From Candidatus Micrarchaeia archaeon (GTDB taxonomy: Archaea; Micrarchaeota; Micrarchaeia; Anstonellales; Anstonellaceae), in contig JBAZTI010000003.1 in NCBI GenBank assembly GCA_041662045.1, positions 1 through 42,034 of the forward strand: a DNA stretch of 42,034 nt. Reading direction: 5' to 3'. The notes under the pieces were generated by a model. It was not told the origin of the DNA. It saw only the letters and a program-made list of their open reading frames with translations, and ran no database searches. Shown in pieces: positions 6,581 through 38,973 of the stretch (the stretch's first letter is position 1; each line of letters opens with the position of its first letter). Both the position numbers and the translations under genes were made by a program.

Positions 6581-7678
6581 CTACTCCTCTTTTTCCCGTG
6601 CCCTGTGCGCGGCGTTCCTCTTGCCCATGCCGGTCTGCTTGTCCCTCCCGGCCATCTTCTCGATCTCGTCCGTCGCCTGGCGCACCGCGGATTCTATCCG
6701 GAAGTCGAATGAGGATGCGTTGTAGGACTTGCGCGCGGCGTCAAGGCGCACGCGCACCGAGAAGCCCGAGCCCTCGTTCTTCACGTGGTAGGCAAGCGAG
6801 CGCACTTCCGAGCTCTTGCCAAGCCGCGCGAGGAGCTTCTCGCCCTCCCTTGCTATCTGCGAGGAGTATTCGCGCTTGTCGTGCGGCAGCCCGGAGATGA
6901 AGACGCGCGAGGCGCCCTTTTCCCCGGCAAGCGCCGAGTGCAGTATGTCCTTTGCAGTCACTATGCCGTGCGGGTAGCCGCCGTCCGCCACTATGAGGGC
7001 TGCGACGCGGGCGTCAAGCATCTTTTTCACGGCAGATGCCAGCGAGTCGCTTTCCCCGATGGTCTCCACCTGCTTTTTCACGTAGGAGGCTATGGGCTGG
7101 GCGTCGGCGCTGGTCTTCTCGCCCCCGCGGTAGAACGGGCTGGACTGCATCTTGCCTGACAGGTGGGTGGCAAGGTCGAAAACTGAGAGGAGCCCGGCGA
7201 TCTTGCCGTCCTTGGTCACCACCATCCTGCGGATGCTCTGGCGCCTCATTTCCGAGCGCGCCTGGCCGATGGAGGAGGAGATGTCAAGCGTGTGCACCGG
7301 CGTGGTCATCACCTCGGACACGCGCTTCTTCGTGAGCATCTTCTCCCCGAGGAGCTCCTGGAACAGCGTGCGGCGCGTGATTGCGCCCTGCACCTTGCCC
7401 TTGTCGATGACGGGGATTGCCTTGAAGCGGCCTGCGAAGAATGCGTTGCATGCGTCCATCACCGTGCTCTCGGGCGTCAGCGTTGGCGCGCGCTCCGAGA
7501 GCGGCCCGCACTTTTCCTTGGAGGGGTCGGTGTGCGAGCGGATTGCGCGCTCGTCGATTATGCCGAAGTACTTCCCGTCCCTTGTCACTATCACGGGCAG
7601 CCCTGTGCGGGAGATTTCGTTTATGGCGCGGCTGACAGGCTCGGACGCGTCAAGAATGCTCGGGTTTTCGATTTCCAT
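6581..7678 (-). CDS. Four-CBS-motif protein with a C-terminal HPF/RaiA-like (ribosome hibernation factor-like) domain
   Basis: Two CBS pairs in the N-terminal 250 aa. The C-terminal ~100 aa (VFISGLPHDKREYSSQIAREGEKLLARLGK..VRSLAYHVKNEGSGFSVRVRLDAARKSYNASSFDFRIESAVRQATDEIEKM) follows the beta-alpha-beta-beta-beta-alpha pattern of S30AE/HPF proteins. This is pattern recognition only. Confidence 0.6.
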   Translation of the reverse strand: MEIENPSILDASEPVSRAINEISRTGLPVIVTRDGKYFGIIDERAIRSHTDPSKEKCGPLSERAPTLTPESTVMDACNAFFAGRFKAIPVIDKGKVQGAITRRTLFQELLGEKMLTKKRVSEVMTTPVHTLDISSSIGQARSEMRRQSIRRMVVTKDGKIAGLLSVFDLATHLSGKMQSSPFYRGGEKTSADAQPIASYVKKQVETIGESDSLASAVKKMLDARVAALIVADGGYPHGIVTAKDILHSALAGEKGASRVFISGLPHDKREYSSQIAREGEKLLARLGKSSEVRSLAYHVKNEGSGFSVRVRLDAARKSYNASSFDFRIESAVRQATDEIEKMAGRDKQTGMGKRNAAHRAREKEE

Positions 7679-7735
7679 AAAGACACCCCATAAGTTCGCT
7701 GCTGAAGGCTCGCAGGCAAGGAATATATAGCCTGC

Positions 7736-8890
7736 CTATTGCAGGGCGGGTTGCCCGGATATGCCCTGCACGCGCGAGAGGTAGTCTGCATAGCCCTGCC
7801 AGCCGCCCTCCCCGTACATGTACAGGTCAGAGTCTGCAATCACCAGCCATATCCTGCCGCCGACGCTCCTGCAGCCGCTGCCCGCGCAGATGGAGAGCGA
7901 CTCGCCTATCCTGCCCAGGTAGCGGCCGTTCTGCGGCTCGAACACTTCCGCCCCATGAAGCAGCGGCACCTGGGAGCTTTCCTGCACGTCCTCGCCCGAC
8001 AGCGCCACTGTGCAGTGCCCGCTTGCCGCGTCCACGCTGTAGCACACCACATAGGCGTGCGAAAGCGCGCCAAGCCTGGCGGCTTTTGCGTTCCTGTACG
8101 CCCAGTAGGTTTCGCTTTCCCCAGGCGTGTACTTGGGGTAGACGCGGAAGTCCGAGTTTTCCGCAGGCTGCCATGCAACTGCAGCGAGGCTGGCGTTTTC
8201 CTCGCGCAGGGAGTTCAGTATCGCCTTGAAGATGAGCGAGTAGTCCTCGCAGTCGCCCCAGCCAAGCCCCATTGTTTCCTTCACCGACTGGAGGTGGTCG
8301 ATGCTTCCCGACACGATGTCCGAGCGGTAGTGTATCGAGAACGCGGTGTTCTCCATGAGGTGCGAGATGCACGCGAGGTTGAGGCTGCCGCCGTCCACGC
8401 AGTCCGAGAGCAGGCGCGGCACAAAGCCCTGCATCACGCGCTCCTGGTTCGGGTCGGAAATCCACGAGTAGTCATGCGGCAGGCGGGCATTTTCGCGGAA
8501 CCATGCGATCGAGGAGTTCAGGGTGAGCTCAAGCCCGGAAAGCTCTTCGCGGAGCTTGTCGGCCTCCTGCTGCTGCCCGGCAAGGCTTTCCTTGCTTGCG
8601 GAAAGCGCGTTCTCGGTTTGCAGGAGGCGGGACTGCAGCGAGGCGATGCTGGCGCTTGCATTGCCAAGCTCTGCGCTTGCCGCCCCAAGCTGCGACTGCG
8701 ACACTGCGTAGCGCGAGCTGAGCAGCGCATAGTCCGACTGCGACTGCGCAAGCCTTGAGGAGAATGTTGCATTGAGGGAGCCCATCCTGCCAGACAGCGC
8801 GGCATTCTCGCCGAAGAGGTAAAGCGCGCAGGATGCAAAGGCTATGATGAGGAAAACGGCTACCCCGCAGGCAATCCTGTTCGTGTCCAT
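7736..8890 (-). CDS. Membrane-anchored coiled-coil protein with a transglutaminase-like cysteine protease core
   Basis: N-terminal TM helix, an Ala/Ser/Leu/Gln-rich coiled coil, then a GWGDCEDYSLIF motif (G-x-C-x-D-y/f Cys core) with downstream His and Asp/Glu candidates. Confidence 0.5.
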   Translation of the reverse strand: MDTNRIACGVAVFLIIAFASCALYLFGENAALSGRMGSLNATFSSRLAQSQSDYALLSSRYAVSQSQLGAASAELGNASASIASLQSRLLQTENALSASKESLAGQQQEADKLREELSGLELTLNSSIAWFRENARLPHDYSWISDPNQERVMQGFVPRLLSDCVDGGSLNLACISHLMENTAFSIHYRSDIVSGSIDHLQSVKETMGLGWGDCEDYSLIFKAILNSLREENASLAAVAWQPAENSDFRVYPKYTPGESETYWAYRNAKAARLGALSHAYVVCYSVDAASGHCTVALSGEDVQESSQVPLLHGAEVFEPQNGRYLGRIGESLSICAGSGCRSVGGRIWLVIADSDLYMYGEGGWQGYADYLSRVQGISGQPALQ

Positions 8891-10599: not shown

Positions 10600-12734
10600 C
10601 TAGCGCTTTGCAACAGCGAATATGGCAGCTGAGGACATCAATATAAGGGCGAGAGGGCAGCCCTGCGCTGCGGCCGCCTGGAAAATGCCCGGCTGGGACA
10701 CCGTGATTTCCTCATCGGAGGAATAGCTGTTCCCGGCGGCATCTGACCAGGAAAGGGACACGATGTGCCTGCCCATGGGAAGCGCCACGGTCATGGGGGA
10801 AGCCGCGGAGTACGTGGAGCCGTTGACCGAAGCCTTCGGGGAGAGCGGGTCGCCCACTTTGGAGAAAATGACCTGGGTGTAAAGCGTGCCGTTTGAGTTG
10901 ATGTTTTCCACGCTGTCAATCGAGAGCGCCGGCTGAAGGAGCACGGTGGATATGCGGCTTTTCCCGTCCTGCTGGCCGCCGGAGCTCGCAGCGAGGCGCA
11001 CCGAGTAGGTGCCTGGCGGGCCCGGCGTGAATGGGAATTCAAACTCCGCCGGCGCGCTTAGCCTGCCAGCGGACTGCATGGTCTGGCTGCCGAACGTGAA
11101 GCCCAGGGAGAAGTCGGCGGGATAATGCGAGGCAGACAGGCTGGCGCGCGCAACCGCCTCCTTGCCCGCCACAAGGGGCTCGGGCAATTCGAATGACACT
11201 ATGGACAGCCCCGAGGGAGACTGGCTTGCGGAGTATTCAAGGCGCACTGCCCCGCCGCCCTCGCCTGCCACATAGACAGGCACCGCCCCTGCCGCGCCGC
11301 TGCTGAAGGGGATTTCCAGGCTGGCGCCCTGCGCGCCTGCAGTGTAAACGCCGTCAGGCAGCACCACGAAGAACCGGCCGCCCCGCCTCTGGGAGGGGAC
11401 CTTGAGGAGAACGCTGTTGCTTTCCCCCACGATGGTGCTGCCGTCGCGCAGCCCTGCCTCGAACATGGGAGGCGCGCGGATGGTCGGGTCGATTTTTATG
11501 GAAAGCGCGCGCCGCTCCAGGTAGGGCGAGTTCAGCGTGAGGGGGCAGGTATAGATATAGCTCATGGGAAGGGAGGATGATGCGTTTATCTCCCAGGCAA
11601 TGGAGGACACCCTGCCTGGCTCCAGTATGAGGTATTTTTCCCCCTCGTCAAGCGAAAGGCTGTCTGTGCCTGCGCAGTTTGCAAGCGACAGGGGGATGAC
11701 CCTGTAGTCAGTGCCTGCCACGGACAGGTAGGCGATTGTCCTGCCGCCCACAGGGAGCTCGTCTTCCGCCGCGGCAAGCTCGAAGGCACCCGATGGCTTT
11801 AGGTAATCCACGCCAAGCGTGCCTATGTTCCCTGCTATCGCGCCGCTTTTCTCGCCTGTGTCCCAGGACACCTTCACCCCGCTTTTGGAGACTGAGGCTG
11901 AAAGGGTGTCGCGGCGCGAGAACTCGGCATATTTGGACTCCTCGATGTGCATGGCGTCCAGCGCCCCGACCTCGAACCAGGTGGGGTCCACAGGCACCCA
12001 CTCGCCGACGTATGCCTCTGCCCAGGAGTGCCCCATCCAGTTTTGGAACTTGTCGCTGTAGACATAGCCTGACAGGTAGCGCACCGGGATGCCTATGGAG
12101 CGCGCAAGCGCGGTGAAAAGGGTGGAGTATTCCGTGCACACGCCCACCATGTGCTCCTTCACCCAAAGCGCGTCCTTTTCCTGCCCCACCATGCCGACGT
12201 CGTATTCCATGTGCCTGTTCACGTATATTGCAAGGAGCGCCACTTTCTCGAAAGGCGTCCTGGCCCAGATGTCACCTGCTGCGCAAGGGCGCGGATGGAA
12301 GCGTCGCCTGACTGCGTGCGGTTGGTTGCCGACAGGAAGGGGCTGAGGGAGGATGGCACGCTGTAGCTCTCGGGAAGCGAGGGGGTGGTGCGCGCGGTGG
12401 TGCGCACTGTGATGGACTTGGAATAGAAAAACGGGTTGGGAGGGTTCTGCTCGAAGATGGAGAGGTAGCCGTTGCCGCCGGAATCGTATTTTATCTGCTC
12501 GCCCGATTCCACCTCCTGGTATGAGGTGGCGGATGGGACCGAGACGTTGAGGCCCAGGCTCTGCATGGTGCCGCCGATTGCGGTCACTGTGCCCTGCGCC
12601 TTCACAAGCGCGGAAAGGGTGTGCGCAAGCTGGGGGGCGGGCGAATCGGCCGAGAAGACGGCTGTGCAGGAAAAGAGCAGGAGGACGGCAAGCGCGCATG
12701 CGAACTGCCTTGTTTGCCTGTGCATGATGCGCAT
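10600..12734 (-). CDS. Secreted transglutaminase-like protein with Ig-like repeats and a C-terminal TM anchor; apparent 1-nt frameshift near 12264
   Basis: The signal peptide and N-domain lie in ORF 12219..12734. The TGase core (VCTEYSTLFTALARSIGIPVRYLSGY, GHSWAEAY, VDPT) and the rest lie in ORF 10600..12699. The frames join at ...VTSG|ARTPFEK if one G is added to the GGG run. Confidence 0.7.
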
Positions 12735-35148: not shown

Positions 35149-35304
35149 ATGGCGGTATCAGAGTGCCCGGAATGCACGTTCCACATCCAGCTTGAGGAAG
35201 GGCTGGAGGTAGGGCAGGTCATCGCCTGCCCGGACTGCGGGGCGAAGATAAAGCTTGTGAAGGAGTTCCCGCCGGTGTTTGCGCGCGTGGGAGAGGAGCG
35301 GTGA
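35149..35304 (+). CDS. Small zinc-ribbon protein (LysW-like fold), 51 aa
   Basis: Not in the ORF track (<60 aa). MAVSECPECTFHIQLEEGLEVGQVIACPDCGAKIKLVKEFPPVFARVGEER has CPEC..(17)..CPDC as in LysW-type ribbons, but lacks the EDWGE tail. TATA-like CCTAATTAAATC lies ~30 nt upstream. Confidence 0.5.
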   Translation: MAVSECPECTFHIQLEEGLEVGQVIACPDCGAKIKLVKEFPPVFARVGEER

Positions 35305-35308
35305 GGGA

Positions 35309-36788
35309 ATGGCGGCCGGAAAAACAGCTTTTGCTTCGCTTGTATTCATTTCCCTCATGCTTCCCGCCGCCTTTTGCGCCTGGAGCCAGGCGCTTGACGT
35401 TTTCGTGGCAGACTCAAACGGCCTGCCTGTGCAGGGCGCGAGCATCAGGATAACCTACCAGAAGGCTAGCGGCACCGCAGGCAACGACGGGCTTGTAGAG
35501 GGGAAAACAGGGGAGGACGGGAAATACTACGCGGGCCTTGAAAACACCGTGCCGGAGGGGCTTGAGGACAGGGCGATAAGCGTGGAGGCGCGCGCATACG
35601 GCTGGCTGGAGGAGAAGCAGGCATTGGCTGATGGCAGCGGGCAGGCCGCGGTGGTGGCGTTTGCCGCGCCGTTTGAGCTTTCGAAGGCCACAATAACCGT
35701 GCTCCAGGCAAGCGGGCTGCCGGCAATCGGCGCCTCGGTGTACATAAGCGGAAGCGAGGTGAAGCTGGCCACGGATTACATGGGAAAAGCGGCAGTTTAC
35801 GCGCCTTCGGGGCTTGAGCTGTCGGGCTTTGTCTCGTATGGGGGCGAAGGGGAGTACTTTTCAGCGGCAGCAGGCAGCGGCAGGGAAATCACGGTAACCC
35901 TCCCTGCAGGGGGGGATGCCGGGTCTGGCGGCACCGTGCTTTCGGTGACATTCATAGCTCCTGACAAGTCGGCGCTTGCAGGGGAAAAGGCGGTATTCAC
36001 GTTCGAAGGCAGGAACGTTTCCGCATACACGGACGCAGGAGGGGTGGCGTCAGTTGAAATCCGGGAAAGCGGTCCTGTGCTTGCAAGCGTGAGGAAGAAC
36101 GACCATGACTACGAGTTCTCATTCAACGTGACTGGACGGCAGCCCGAAAAGCGAAACCGCGGCGCTTGCCCCGCTCCTCAAGATAGACTATTTCGAGTCA
36201 AGCCCCGAGGGAAACGGGTGCTACCAGCTCGCGGCAAAGGTGAGCGACCCGAGGGCGAACAGGCCGATAACGGTTCGGATGATGCAGGTGAACAGCGACA
36301 GCGTGCCTGTGGGCGAGATAAAGGTGTCGGTGGACGAAAACGGGGTCTATGCCGGAAGGGTGTGCGTCAGGGAGGACGCGCTGGTGAGGGTGGTGGCGTC
36401 AAACGCCTATGAGACCACGGAGAAGGCGTTTTCGCTTGCCGCGTCAGTCAAGCCGCCGCCCCAGCCCGAGCCTGGCGAGCCTGAGCCCCAGCCGGTTGCG
36501 CCTGAGCCTTCGGTTCCGGCCCAGCCTGCAAGGGCAGTCACGCTTGAGGAAACGCTGGGCACGCTTGCCGCAGCGGCGGTGATGGTTGCGCTGGTGGCAG
36601 GGATAGGGATTGTCTTCCTTGGCAGGCACAACCCCCAGGCTGCAGGAGGGATGCTGAAGGCGGCAGGCCAGATGCAGGAGCTTTTCATGAGAAGCATAGC
36701 GCGCCCGATACTGGAGTACCTCAGGTCGGTCTTCAAGAAAAAGGAGCCGCCGCAGCAGACTTTCGGGCAGCAGCAAAAGGGGCAATGA
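35309..36788 (+). CDS. Secreted protein with carboxypeptidase-regulatory-like beta-sandwich repeats, a Pro/Glu linker and a C-terminal TM anchor; apparent 1-nt frameshift near 36131
   Basis: The signal peptide MAAGKTAFASLVFISLMLPAAFCAWS and repeats lie in frame 1 up to ..YEFSFNV. A credible continuation (LDGSPKSETAALAPLLKIDYFESSP...PPPQPEPGEPEPQP...TM) lies in the frame of ORF 36240..36788. The frame-1 continuation is Arg/Gly-rich nonsense. Confidence 0.6.
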
Positions 36789-36833
36789 CCGGTTCTTTCC
36801 ACTTGAGCCGGCTGAAATGAGTCTGGCGCGCCA

Positions 36834-37083
36834 TTATTTGAGCCGAATCGCATCAAGGTTCATCGGGGCTCGCGAGTCGATGCGCAACGCTAGTTGCGCA
36901 GATTTTCAGCCTCAGCTGAAAAGACGAGCGGGCTCTACTTGAGCCTGATGGCATCCAAATTCATGGGTGCGCGCGAGTCGACGGACAACCGCAGTTGGAC
37001 GGATTTTCAGCGCAGCTGAAAACAAGAGCGCCATCCTATTTCAGCCTGATAGCATCAAGATTCATTGGCGCTCTTGAATCGAT
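36834..37083 (-). repeat. Tandem array (period 101 nt, 3 copies) of the aCPSF1 3' coding tail plus a hairpin-bearing spacer
   Basis: Tails at 37036-37083 (in the gene), 36935-36982 and 36834-36881. Spacers of 53 nt each hold TTTTCAGC-N3/4-GCTGAAAA (37004-37022, 36903-36922) and a CAAC-N4-GTTG stem (36882-36899 is perfect). Confidence 0.95.
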
Positions 37084-38973
37084 GTGGAACATCTTGGAGA
37101 TGGTGCGCGACAGGTCCTCGCACTTTGCCTCGTCCCCGTGCAGCGTGAATACGCGCTCGGGCTTGGGGTGCATGTTCTTGAGGAGCGAGAGCAGCTGCTG
37201 CCTGTCGGAGTGGCCTGAATAGCCCTCCACAGTCTCTATCTGCATGTTTATCTTGAGGGATGCCGCGCGGCCGTCCTCGCCTATGGTGGGCACTTCCTTC
37301 ATGCCGCGCTGTATCTTCCGCCCGAGCGACAAGGCTGACTGGTAGCCCACGAAGAACATGGCGTTTTTCGGGTCGTCGGCCATGAGCCGCAGGTATTCGA
37401 CGGAGGGCCCGCCTGAAAGCATGCCCGAGGGCGCGATTATGATTGCAGGCCCGCCGTCCGCGATTTCCTGCCTGTCCTTCTTCACAGGCTCGAATATGCG
37501 CGACTCGAAGGGCGAGTCGTTGGAGAGTATGCGCCGCTGTATGTTGTGGCGCAGGTACTCGGGGTACGCGGTGTGTATTGCAGACGCCTCGAGAATCATG
37601 CCGTCTATGTAGACAGGGTAGTTGAAGTCCTTGTTGCGGCTGGCGTATTCCTCAAGCACCAGCATGATTTCCTGCGAGCGGCCCACCGCGAATGTCGGGA
37701 TGAGCACTTTCCCCCCCCTCTGGCAGACCGAGAGCGCAAGGTCCACGAGCTTCTTGTCGGACTCGAACCTGTTGGGCTGGACGTCGTTCCTGCCGCCGTA
37801 CGTGCTGTCTATGAAAAGGGTCTCCACGCGCGGGAAGTTGGAGTTCGCCTGGTCGAACAGGCGGGTGAAGCCGTACTTTATGTCCCCCGAGAAGACAAGG
37901 TTGTGCAGGCCCTCGCCCACGTGCAGGTGCACCATGGAGCTGCCAAGTATGTGCCCTGCGTTGTAGAAGGTGAGCTTGACCTCGGGCGTGATGTCGATGA
38001 CCTCGTTGTAGCCCACGGTAACCATGTGCGCAAGCTCCTTCTGTATGTCCTTTATGCCGTACGGGACCGCGTACTGGGAGTTCTTGCTTGCAATGGAGAC
38101 GAAGTCCATCTGGAGCAGCATTGCAAGGTCGCGGGTCGGCGGGGTGCAGTAGACAGGCCCGTCGTAGCCGTATGCGAAGAGATAGGGTATGAAGCCGCAG
38201 TGGTCCATGTGCGCGTGCGTGAGCACCACGGCGTCTATCTGGGAAAGCTCGAGCTTCATCTCGTTGAGGTACGGGTATGCCTTGGAAGGCTCGAACGTCT
38301 CGGGGTTTATGCCGCAGTCCACAAGCACGTTGCTGTTGGGCGTCTGGATGAGCGCGGAGCTCCTGCCCACCTCGTAAAAGCCGCCAAGCGCGGTCACCTT
38401 CACCCAGTCGCTTTTCGTGGGGAGCGGGGAGCATATCTTCTTGCCCAATGACTGCAGGAACTTCTTGCGGTTGCCCGCCTCCTTGAGCATGGTGGCGCGC
38501 ACGCCCTTTATGGTGGACGAAGGCATTGTCGGGGTGCGCTGCACCACGGGCGCCCAGCGCGTCTTCTGTATTATCGCCTTGAGGGTGGTGCCGCCCTTGC
38601 CTATCACCAGCCCTGGCTTGAGCGCCTCGATGTTCACTTCCGAGAAGTCCGGGTTGAAGCGGATGTCCGACACCCCCGCGTCCTCGGGGATGGACTCCTT
38701 TATTATTGCAAGCGCCTCCTCGGCGGGGAGGAGCGCGGACGGGTCGCTTTTCACAAGAATCCGCTTGCGTATGGTGCCGGCAATCTTGCGGATGAGCTGG
38801 TCGTTCTCGTAGAAGGAGACGATGTCCTTGACATACACCACTATGTCAAGCCCCTCGGCATCCACCTTGACCAGCTTGCATTCGCTCGGCACGAGTTCCT
38901 CTATCTTCTTCTCTATTTCCTTGAAATCCAAATCGTCGCCTTCGTAAGCTGCTGTTTCAGAGGCACCAGTCAC
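37036..38973 (-). CDS. aCPSF1/FttA: KH-domain beta-CASP metallo-beta-lactamase ribonuclease (archaeal transcription termination factor)
   Basis: Two N-terminal KH domains (VIGKGGTTLKAI), an MBL motif HAHMDHCG, beta-CASP and RMMBL regions, 645 aa. ATGA-type overlap with the psmB stop. Confidence 0.93.
   Translation of the reverse strand: MTGASETAAYEGDDLDFKEIEKKIEELVPSECKLVKVDAEGLDIVVYVKDIVSFYENDQLIRKIAGTIRKRILVKSDPSALLPAEEALAIIKESIPEDAGVSDIRFNPDFSEVNIEALKPGLVIGKGGTTLKAIIQKTRWAPVVQRTPTMPSSTIKGVRATMLKEAGNRKKFLQSLGKKICSPLPTKSDWVKVTALGGFYEVGRSSALIQTPNSNVLVDCGINPETFEPSKAYPYLNEMKLELSQIDAVVLTHAHMDHCGFIPYLFAYGYDGPVYCTPPTRDLAMLLQMDFVSIASKNSQYAVPYGIKDIQKELAHMVTVGYNEVIDITPEVKLTFYNAGHILGSSMVHLHVGEGLHNLVFSGDIKYGFTRLFDQANSNFPRVETLFIDSTYGGRNDVQPNRFESDKKLVDLALSVCQRGGKVLIPTFAVGRSQEIMLVLEEYASRNKDFNYPVYIDGMILEASAIHTAYPEYLRHNIQRRILSNDSPFESRIFEPVKKDRQEIADGGPAIIIAPSGMLSGGPSVEYLRLMADDPKNAMFFVGYQSALSLGRKIQRGMKEVPTIGEDGRAASLKINMQIETVEGYSGHSDRQQLLSLLKNMHPKPERVFTLHGDEAKCEDLSRTISKMFHIDSRAPMNLDAIRLK

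Follow-up and report, generated by a model that had tools for sequence, protein, structure and literature searches.

Replacement of the 3' end of a gene by incoming DNA has clear precedents, in the C-terminal displacement seen at rhs, contact-dependent inhibition (CDI) and type VI secretion system (T6SS) loci and in the insertion of e14 into icd. Displacement at rhs, cdiA-CT and T6SS loci leaves strings of orphan 3' ends (Jackson et al. 2009, as cited by Kirchberger et al. 2017, PMC5361080), and the mechanism proposed for these loci in the latter account combines a homologous anchor upstream with an illegitimate joint downstream and needs no integrase. In the icd gene of Escherichia coli, e14 and phage 21 supply a replacement 3' end and a 163-bp pseudo-icd' stays behind (Hill et al. 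1989, as cited in PMC6379469). Homology-facilitated illegitimate recombination is described from naturally transformable bacteria (PMC3240628; Prudhomme 2002 and Meier & Wackernagel 2003, as cited in PMC5361080). Here we describe the 3' end of the gene for the transcription-termination nuclease aCPSF1/FttA in a 42,034-nt stretch of DNA from a Candidatus Micrarchaeia archaeon (assembly GCA_041662045.1, contig JBAZTI010000003.1, positions 1 to 42,034; hereafter the window, or WIN), where the functional gene end is followed by two further copies of its terminal codons and by the remnant of a fourth. On balance we think it probable that this array is a stack of orphaned aCPSF1 ends produced by C-terminal displacement that left the protein unchanged. 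Serial displacement of the gene end by incoming DNA had been suggested in an initial annotation of the window, and it gains support from related genomes, from the decay of downstream copies, from the turnover of tails and from the foreign base composition of the current tail.

The aCPSF1/FttA gene occupies 37036..38931 on the minus strand and encodes 631 amino acids from the TTG start used by its homologues (38931); the reading frame can also be extended to a GTG at 38973. The product has Pfam matches to KH_TffA, Lactamase_B (metallo-beta-lactamase), Beta-Casp and RMMBL, and is identical to two sequences (P0001/P0002) annotated as 'beta-CASP ribonuclease aCPSF1, Ca. Micrarchaeia'. Its last 15 codons and TAG stop (tail 1, 37036..37083, minus strand) are the functional gene end and encode the dimer-interface motif IDSRAPMNLDAIRLK. 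Continuing on the minus strand, there follow a 53-nt spacer (module 1, 36983..37035), an intact and presumably displaced copy of the tail (tail 2, 36935..36982) that encodes VDSRAPMNLDAIRLK and is separated from tail 1 by 12 differences, all but one synonymous, a second 53-nt spacer (module 2, 36882..36934) and another such intact copy (tail 3, 36834..36881) that again encodes IDSRAPMNLDAIRLK and ends in TAA. After this third unit a pattern scan located the decayed left end of a module (TGGCGCGCCAGACTCATTTCAG) fused to a fourth, 5'-truncated tail end (36789..36833, minus strand), the tail remnant itself being AGCCGGCTCAAGTGG at 36813-36799. Tandem Repeats Finder returns a period of exactly 101 nt for the tails, and the coordinates, peptides and period initially annotated all hold.

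The arrangement resembles that at rhs, CDI and T6SS loci, in that displaced 3' ends lie behind a conserved gene on its own strand; the newest of them would be innermost, and they would have been acquired horizontally. The orphans, the fourth remnant included, share the strand of the gene, are complete at their 3' ends, begin at truncated 5' ends and have no open reading frame (ORF) upstream, while their horizontal origin is indicated by tail distances, by a phylogeny uncoupled from that of the gene body and by base composition rather than by an identified donor. The differences are considerable. The tips at rhs, CDI and T6SS loci are variable toxins accompanied by immunity genes, whereas all aCPSF1 tips encode the same 15-residue peptide; the gene is an essential housekeeping gene, its displacement is visible just at synonymous sites and its function is not diversified; and in place of kilobase units there are units of 101 nt, with a hairpin module between the tips, in a DPANN host.

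As at icd, the incoming DNA would have supplied the terminal codons and kept the gene intact, the old end remaining downstream. The 3' halves of tRNA genes are duplicated analogously at attachment (att) sites. In what follows, related loci collected for comparison carry the labels L001-L048. Direct repeats of the 3' end flank the inserted DNA in the window, L005, L015, L025 and L035, and in L012 they do so together with cargo genes. Unlike e14, however, the window has no integrase and no element body between its copies, only 53 nt; it has three stacked ends rather than two, and junctions vary among lineages. The identical core expected of such an insertion is lacking in the window and is present just in L012 (25/26 nt) and L010 (37/37 nt). 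The resemblance to homology-facilitated illegitimate recombination lies in the combination of one anchor, the block upstream of the tail, with variable distal joints of microhomology type and variable 5' truncation, although that process alone would not give the same module-tail junction in several lineages and twice in the window. We know of no demonstration of this kind of recombination in DPANN archaea.

Recomputed from the sequence, the pairwise differences between the window tails are 12, 11 and 12 of 48 nt; 33 of these 35 are synonymous or stop-to-stop and the sole amino-acid change is I/V, exactly as first reported. The 16 variable columns comprise 12 third positions, three synonymous first positions (in Arg and Leu codons) and the single I/V position. 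A formal permutation test had been suggested by the initial annotation, and in 200,000 rounds of column shuffling the two amino-acid differences observed were never equalled (mean 21.8, minimum 8). Conservation of the peptide could in principle reflect an overlapping gene on the plus strand, as the same annotation had recognised, but we reject this: two antisense frames contain stops, the third has six amino-acid differences, no other frame on either strand is equally conserved and the period of 101 shifts the frame by two with every unit. We also rejected readthrough or frameshifting into tail 2, the 53-nt spacer being no multiple of three and each downstream tail having an in-frame TGA nine codons ahead of it, a stop that had been noticed before; no ORF lies between the units. 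The spacers had been described as homologous and as carrying hairpins of two kinds, both of which is correct, though the estimated identity of two-thirds was slightly too low (40/53 measured). The longest run common to all three window tails is 5 nt, and pairwise runs reach 8-10 nt at different positions.

Any explanation of the array has to account for when these differences arose. Each pair of window tails differs by about 10 synonymous and at most one non-synonymous change, and adjacent tails in all arrays together show 67 synonymous and seven non-synonymous differences. Divergence in place is excluded, because the functional copy would have had to evolve at least 20-fold faster than a neighbour 100 nt away. 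Distances within arrays (9-12 of 45) match those between species (11.2±2.8) and are no smaller than random synonymous re-encoding would give (8.4±2.2), from which it follows that the copies gained their differences while each was selected as a real gene end and were joined recently. The earlier view that each tail evolved as a functional end of aCPSF1 is thus upheld by both the synonymous bias and the distances. The peptide in question is an experimentally validated dimer-interface motif, and an enzyme deprived of its last 12 residues is mostly monomeric and impaired (PMC3553952); only events delivering an intact tail therefore survive, which accounts for the confinement of the differences to synonymous sites. 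The current functional tail is, in addition, compositionally foreign: the G+C content of its third codon positions (GC3) is 6/15 (0.40), against 0.849 elsewhere in the gene, and no other of 617 windows is as low (binomial 8.5e-5).

About 40 distinct related gene ends were gathered from reference genomes, JGI metagenomes, ENA and Logan. Most relatives are single-tailed, with the convergent gene often just 4-10 nt away, and one single-tail population is sampled in ten assemblies. Extra full-length tails occur in six lineages (the window, L005, L015, L035, L025 and L010), which between them use three unrelated types of hairpin spacer and three different junction positions; arrays or remnants are found in eight lineages besides the window. 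In L005 the tails are separated by a 217-nt spacer with the same two module ends as in the window, and its right end and junction, of the spacer-1 type, match window module 1 at 22/25 nt. The spacers of L015 and L035 are nearly identical to window spacer 2, the 3' 29 nt of module 2 being 100% identical to the L035 spacer and matching L015 at 24/25 nt. L025 has an unrelated 36-nt hairpin spacer and a duplication that begins three codons earlier, in which a serine codon is switched between AGC and TCC, while L010 carries an exact 37-nt duplicate around a 39-nt hairpin, the two copies still being identical. Truncated tail-end remnants are present in the window, L015, L016 and L003, the last of which (equivalent to L047 and L048) has the same sequence in three independent assemblies. 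Every displaced copy keeps its 3' end whole and is cut off on the 5' side, at points that differ: at the I/V codon in what we call type A, three codons earlier in L025, at the Met codon in L010, at the L-D codons in the second repeat of L012 and at the I-R codons in the remnants.

The same gene end also receives whole genes. In L012, a more distant relative, the aCPSF1 tail is followed (6879-8272) by a tetratricopeptide repeat (TPR) gene, a 26-nt tail-end repeat (25/26 identical), a pair consisting of an antitoxin-like DUF7557 gene and a ParE toxin gene, and an 18-nt repeat. The stop codon of the TPR gene falls within the tail-end repeat. In L027 (= L008) a D12 N6-adenine methyltransferase gene and a convergent ORF lie between aCPSF1 and its usual neighbour (6612-7937); the ORF has a weak, below-cutoff match to a PD-(D/E)XK nuclease domain, and the two are a candidate restriction-modification pair. 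The same D12/PD-(D/E)XK pair occurs in L005 about 3.8 kb further downstream (10693-12018), a difference in position which suggests that this module is mobile. In L001 a TrmB regulator and an ORF of no assigned function are inserted at the aCPSF1 3' end.

If downstream copies are former gene ends, they should be free to decay. In the relatives, four of the six full-length downstream copies are defective, against none of 29 functional tails (Fisher p=2.9e-4). The defects are Ser to stop at codon 3 in L015, stop to Tyr in L025, D to G in L035 and L to I in L005, and more distal copies are reduced to truncated fragments. This gradient fits an order in which the newest copy lies beside the gene and older ones decay, and it speaks against a conserved function of the copies. 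Nor is there support for switchable 3' ends or a structured autoregulatory untranslated region, both of which had been offered initially as alternatives, because the copies encode the same peptide, most relatives have no array and the copies in relatives have suffered nonsense and stop-loss changes.

Turnover of the tail is evident across the clade. Among 14-15 close relatives with aCPSF1 proteins 91-97% identical, codon identity at invariant residues, matched for amino acid, is 37.9% in the tail and 63.5±6% in the body (P<1e-5), and none of 285 sliding windows is more diverged than the tail. The matching disposes of the objection that the tail is variable only through its four- and sixfold degenerate codons. 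It might equally be argued that the body is unusually conserved and the tail merely normal; this we reject, since psmB and the KaiC-like genes have the same third-position identity as the aCPSF1 body (0.62-0.75, against 0.33-0.53 in the tail). The border is sharp. In 17 close relatives the 105 nt immediately upstream of the tail (37084..37188, minus strand, in the window) are near-invariant, third positions included, whereas nearly all third positions of the tail vary; 45-nt windows are 0.84-0.98 identical in the upstream block and 0.71-0.84 in the tail. Tail codons are also more diverse than draws from the codon usage of the body (0.415 versus 0.485±0.025, P=0.002), with GAT and AAT at about 50% in tails where the body strongly prefers GAC and AAC. 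Tail similarity is uncoupled from body similarity across the clade. Hitch-hiking of the tail with imported alleles of the neighbouring surface-protein gene is not specifically supported, because tail distance correlates no better with that gene (0.37) than with the body (0.35), and the surface gene itself tracks the body (Mantel 0.72).

Each module opens with a T-tract 10-20 nt after the stop codon, followed by a hairpin of T-run, stem and A-run. In module 1 the T-tract lies at 37022-37019, hairpin 1 (TTTTCAGC-TGC-GCTGAAAA) at 37022-37004 and hairpin 2 (CAAC-TGCG-GTTG) at 36997-36986, abutting tail 2; in module 2, again headed by the T-tract, hairpin 1 (TTTTCAGC-TGAG-GCTGAAAA) lies at 36922-36903 and hairpin 2 (GCGCAAC-TAGC-GTTGCGC) at 36899-36882, abutting tail 3, all on the minus strand. 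In archaeal termination, as described in PMC8716108, aCPSF1 works together with a U-tract signal. Since the module starts with such a tract and its hairpin is of the T-run/stem/A-run kind common in intergenic regions of these genomes, it is plausibly a portable and possibly bidirectional terminator. Rfam covariance models gave no match at E<=1 in 36500-37400, and neither did a scan for consensus terminators, which demands more T's than the modules have. In the roughly 440 kb examined the module is seen only downstream of aCPSF1. Module type and the first codon of the next tail vary together, and the type-A junction recurs in four lineages and twice in the window.

In proposing how the array was formed, we need to explain why intact but differently encoded ends are stacked behind one gene, and why their 5' limits vary. 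Our contention is that on at least two, and probably three, occasions foreign DNA of Micrarchaeota type, from another lineage or from an element circulating among them, would have recombined into the locus, bringing with it a complete aCPSF1 tail and, behind this, a short terminator module of U-tract and hairpin. The left crossover would fall in the near-invariant stretch of about 100 nt just upstream of the tail (the putative homologous anchor at 37084..37188), and the right joint at or inside the resident tail. The newcomer would then become the functional end, and the resident tail would be pushed downstream, complete at its 3' end, variably truncated at its 5' end and released from selection. 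The synonymous differences would stem from divergence between donor and recipient while each tail was still functional. The enzymology may be homologous or homeologous recombination combined with an illegitimate joint, or may involve a site-specific recombinase acting in trans; it is something we infer, as are the direction of stacking and the role of the anchor. The differing junctions and unrelated spacers (types A, B and C, and L012) point to several independent illegitimate joints. Arrays could also spread and grow by pairing of the second tail of a donor with the tail of a recipient, and the recurrence of the type-A junction, together with the co-variation of module and first codon, is best fitted by such tail-to-tail recombination.

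Several observations weigh against displacement as just outlined. A search for donors among the related loci, a comparison that the initial annotation had proposed, found none. Relatives share both the process and the junctions; even the most similar of their tails are 6-8 differences in 48 nt away, those nearest to tail 3 being the functional tails of L017 and L035, at 6/48. Saturation of the synonymous sites makes donors untraceable, as does the weak correlation of tail distance with the distances of the body and of the downstream gene (the values given above). Both downstream tails of the window are flawless, which fits recent displacement but fits selection as well. Pfam screens of 34 window ORFs, and of 67 ORFs from the roughly 6 kb downstream of aCPSF1 in 23 loci, revealed neither a recombinase nor a mobile-element gene apart from one transposase gene at a single-tail locus (among the 25 families listed for each screen, of 40 and 50 that matched, a scope that applies to all such statements below), and IMG/VR viral contigs contain neither tail pattern nor junction pattern nor a relative of aCPSF1. 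The window contig is known from a single assembly, on which the three-unit array rests. A further difficulty is the type-A module, which is conserved much better than a neutral sequence should be. Its 3' 29 nt are identical in the window and L035 although third-position identity in the gene body is 0.74, and the right half of type A is identical across lineages whose synonymous sites are 26% diverged, with saturated tails on both sides. To explain such conservation, either the module must have spread horizontally in recent times while tails were swapped repeatedly, or a function or constraint must be at work that lies outside the displacement model; a constrained module could be a recombinase site, or a structure into which the in-frame TTG two codons before the downstream tails happens to fall.

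One alternative retains serial displacement and changes the enzymology. The aCPSF1 3' end would be an att site for small elements that carry a replacement tail, the recombinase being encoded elsewhere or being a hijacked host enzyme of Xer type, the 53-nt modules would be miniature or decayed elements and hairpin 2 the site of the recombinase. The cargo of L012, bounded by near-identical tail-end repeats of 26 and 18 nt, speaks for such insertion, and cargo genes at this gene end are of typically mobile kinds (the toxin-antitoxin pair and the candidate restriction-modification pair). The same module and junction stand between different tails in the window, L015 and L035, with a 217-nt version in L005, and confinement of the module to the downstream side of aCPSF1 also agrees with a dedicated site. 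Hairpin 2, moreover, is conserved far more strongly than expected under neutrality, and its arms differ among lineages by one compensatory double change (GCGCAAC/GTTGCGC versus GGACAAC/GYTGTCC). Against this, no integrase was found in the window or in the 23 downstream regions, IMG/VR is without any match, and units of 53-101 nt are implausibly small as autonomous recombination substrates. The window tails share no nucleotide core longer than 5 nt, the palindromic TCAGGCTGA in the I-R-L codons, which we had considered as a recombination core, is not conserved among lineages and is weakened as a candidate, and the junction positions vary among types A, B, C and L012. We regard site-specific integration as unlikely, though worth keeping in view.

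The flawless state of both downstream window tails invites the idea that they function where they are, either as mimics of the dimerisation motif, 17-residue peptides translated from the TTG in hairpin 2 that would modulate FttA dimerisation, or as 'backup' ends under second-order selection, in which case deletions between units would often promote a downstream copy to gene end. An in-frame TTG does stand two codons upstream of the tail in L015, in L035 and twice in the window, the encoded peptide is a known protein-protein interface, and the module is conserved while tails vary just synonymously, even between lineages that share the module. The relatives tell against it: four of six copies there are defective, L005 has CTG in place of TTG, and most relatives, the population with ten assemblies among them, have no second tail. 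A U-tract terminator stands between tail 1 and the putative start codon, for which there is no recognisable ribosome-binding context. Selection for backup would be weak, since at 25% divergence and with no shared run above 10 nt homologous deletion should be rare. Function in place is accordingly improbable.

It is also conceivable, at rather long odds, that tails and modules constitute a dedicated system of cassette exchange, which would re-code, at the nucleotide level only, a 45-nt segment that is both invariant and essential, possibly as an escape from guided targeting of the termination-factor gene of a DPANN symbiont by host CRISPR spacers, antisense RNAs or Argonaute. The downstream tails would then be a reservoir of pre-tested synonymous alleles and the module the site of an as yet undiscovered recombinase. 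Codon diversity above random in the tails, conservation of the module and the intact window copies are compatible with this, as is the restriction of hypervariability to a segment the size of a protospacer with sharp borders.

That the array is an artefact of metagenome assembly, a chain of gene ends from co-occurring strains, we consider very improbable. In its favour, single samples do contain several related lineages, the array of three units comes from one assembly alone, and 101 nt is a common Illumina read length. Yet the joining spacer is absent upstream of any functional tail, so that no shared k-mer path exists, and both junction types recur in independent assemblies from the samples of other projects, that of spacer 2 in L035 (29/29 nt) and in L015, that of spacer 1 in L005. 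The arrays that corroborate the junctions have periods of 100, 114 and 265 nt, and the L003 remnant is, as noted, the same in three assemblies. In-place tandem duplication, through slippage or unequal crossing-over of the 101-nt unit and subsequent divergence, can point to the exact period of 101 occurring twice, to the exact gene-end duplicate of L010 as proof that duplication in place occurs and to 3.5 exact 39-nt copies at the same intergenic site in L029, but is effectively refuted by the 67:7 synonymous bias, given that silent copies would change everywhere, and is further opposed by within-array distances no smaller than those between species and by the foreign composition of tail 1.

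Some other repeat systems share superficial features with the locus. Integron arrays likewise grow by adding units at a fixed site while older units shift outwards, and the CAAC...GTTG hairpin at the unit boundary and the toxin-antitoxin cargo of L012 recall them. Unlike integrons, the locus has no IntI or attI, and hairpin 2 is an 18-nt single stem, where attC sites span 57-141 nt with an R''/L''/L'/R' architecture (judged by inspection). The absence of a tyrosine recombinase and the shortness of hairpin 2 lead us to reject membership; Micrarchaeota are not listed in the paper on archaeal integrons (PMC9668308). A diversity-generating retroelement was rejected in view of the variable columns, just 2-7 of 16 of which would be A with any template, of nine invariant columns that are A and of the synonymous nature of the changes, and no reverse transcriptase was found in the window. 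A CRISPR-like array, ectopic spacer integration included, is rejected as well: the window repeats are 75% identical, not near-identical, and no Cas family was found in the window. CRISPR-like geometry appears in L010 only, where a 37-nt exact repeat encloses a 39-nt spacer.

If protein-silent displacement is the correct explanation, recombination has repeatedly rewritten the end of a highly conserved, vertically inherited archaeal gene and left the protein as it was. C-terminal displacement would then extend from polymorphic toxin loci to a housekeeping gene, in a form that protein-level analysis and standard annotation miss. The stacked tails would serve as molecular fossils because the peptide is fixed, their synonymous differences recording the history of donor lineages and their non-synonymous decay the time since displacement. 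To our knowledge the mechanisms of gene flow in DPANN archaea are poorly understood, and such fossils may offer a direct handle on DNA exchange between DPANN lineages. The aCPSF1 3' end would also be a hotspot for selfish cargo in Micrarchaeota, namely the toxin-antitoxin pair and the candidate restriction-modification pair, and phylogenies or estimates of synonymous divergence (dS) that include such gene ends would be distorted.

The window contig belongs to the core chromosome of a member of Candidatus Micrarchaeota (DPANN), with genes for PolD, topoisomerase VI and ArgRS, and its nearest relatives are metagenome-assembled genomes of Micrarchaeota. A proteasome-subunit gene lies directly upstream of aCPSF1. 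On the other side the array is bounded by the 3' part of a convergent surface-protein gene with Ig-like and CarboxypepD_reg domains (36240..36788, plus strand). The full gene (35279-36788) is one ORF of about 500 amino acids in relatives and is split into two frames in the window contig, with a break near 36133-36135 that marks either a frameshifted pseudogene or a sequencing error. Its product evolves fast, being 36-78% identical within the clade in which aCPSF1 is 91-97% identical.

Other rearrangements affect the same intergenic site. On the opposite strand the 37-nt duplicate of L010 (6871-6983) takes in the final codons and the stop of the convergent gene; the two genes must therefore have overlapped by about 9 nt until the duplication separated them. 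In L029 (about 6930-7070) the exact copies of the 39-nt tandem repeat (AAAACCCGCAAGCCCGCCCAACAGGCAAACAAAGCGTAC) begin just past the aCPSF1 stop, so the site is prone to plain tandem duplication too. L022 and L031 have an insertion of about 330 nt between the aCPSF1 stop and the convergent gene, flanked, as judged by eye, by imperfect direct repeats that resemble the 3' end of the convergent gene (GCC(T/C)TTTTCCG..CCATGCCT), which suggests that the end of this neighbour can be duplicated as well. Elsewhere in L005 (3600-4000) a gene for a type-IV-pilin-like surface protein of 488 amino acids, ending in AAVYGDANLGYNFWNT, is followed about 150 nt downstream by a partly diverged orphan of its last 25 or so codons (ending AAVYGDANISYNYWNA) with a 21-nt identical core. 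Displacement of 3' ends is therefore not unique to aCPSF1 in these genomes, although a scan of about 400 ORFs gave no recurrent case besides aCPSF1.

The sole transposase among the families listed is an IS200-like Y1 (HUH) enzyme in L006 (= L024; 9167-9682, Pfam Y1_Tnp, 1.3e-25), about 2.3 kb downstream of aCPSF1 at a single-tail locus and adjoining a tRNA gene. An origin of the module hairpins from IS200/IS605 elements or palindrome-associated transposable elements (PATEs) is not supported, as this transposase is beside no array and like hairpins are general in intergenic DNA. Clusters of three to five consecutive short hairpins (8-12-bp stems, 3-4-nt loops, a leading T-run and a trailing A-run) occur between genes in L021 (3500-3615), L006 (9857-10031) and L005 (6940-7090); those of L006 lie on both sides of a tRNA gene, and one hairpin of the L005 spacer is 91% identical to a hairpin of L021. 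The intergenic hairpins may represent a genome-wide family of bidirectional terminators or of elements like repetitive extragenic palindromes (REP) in Micrarchaeota.

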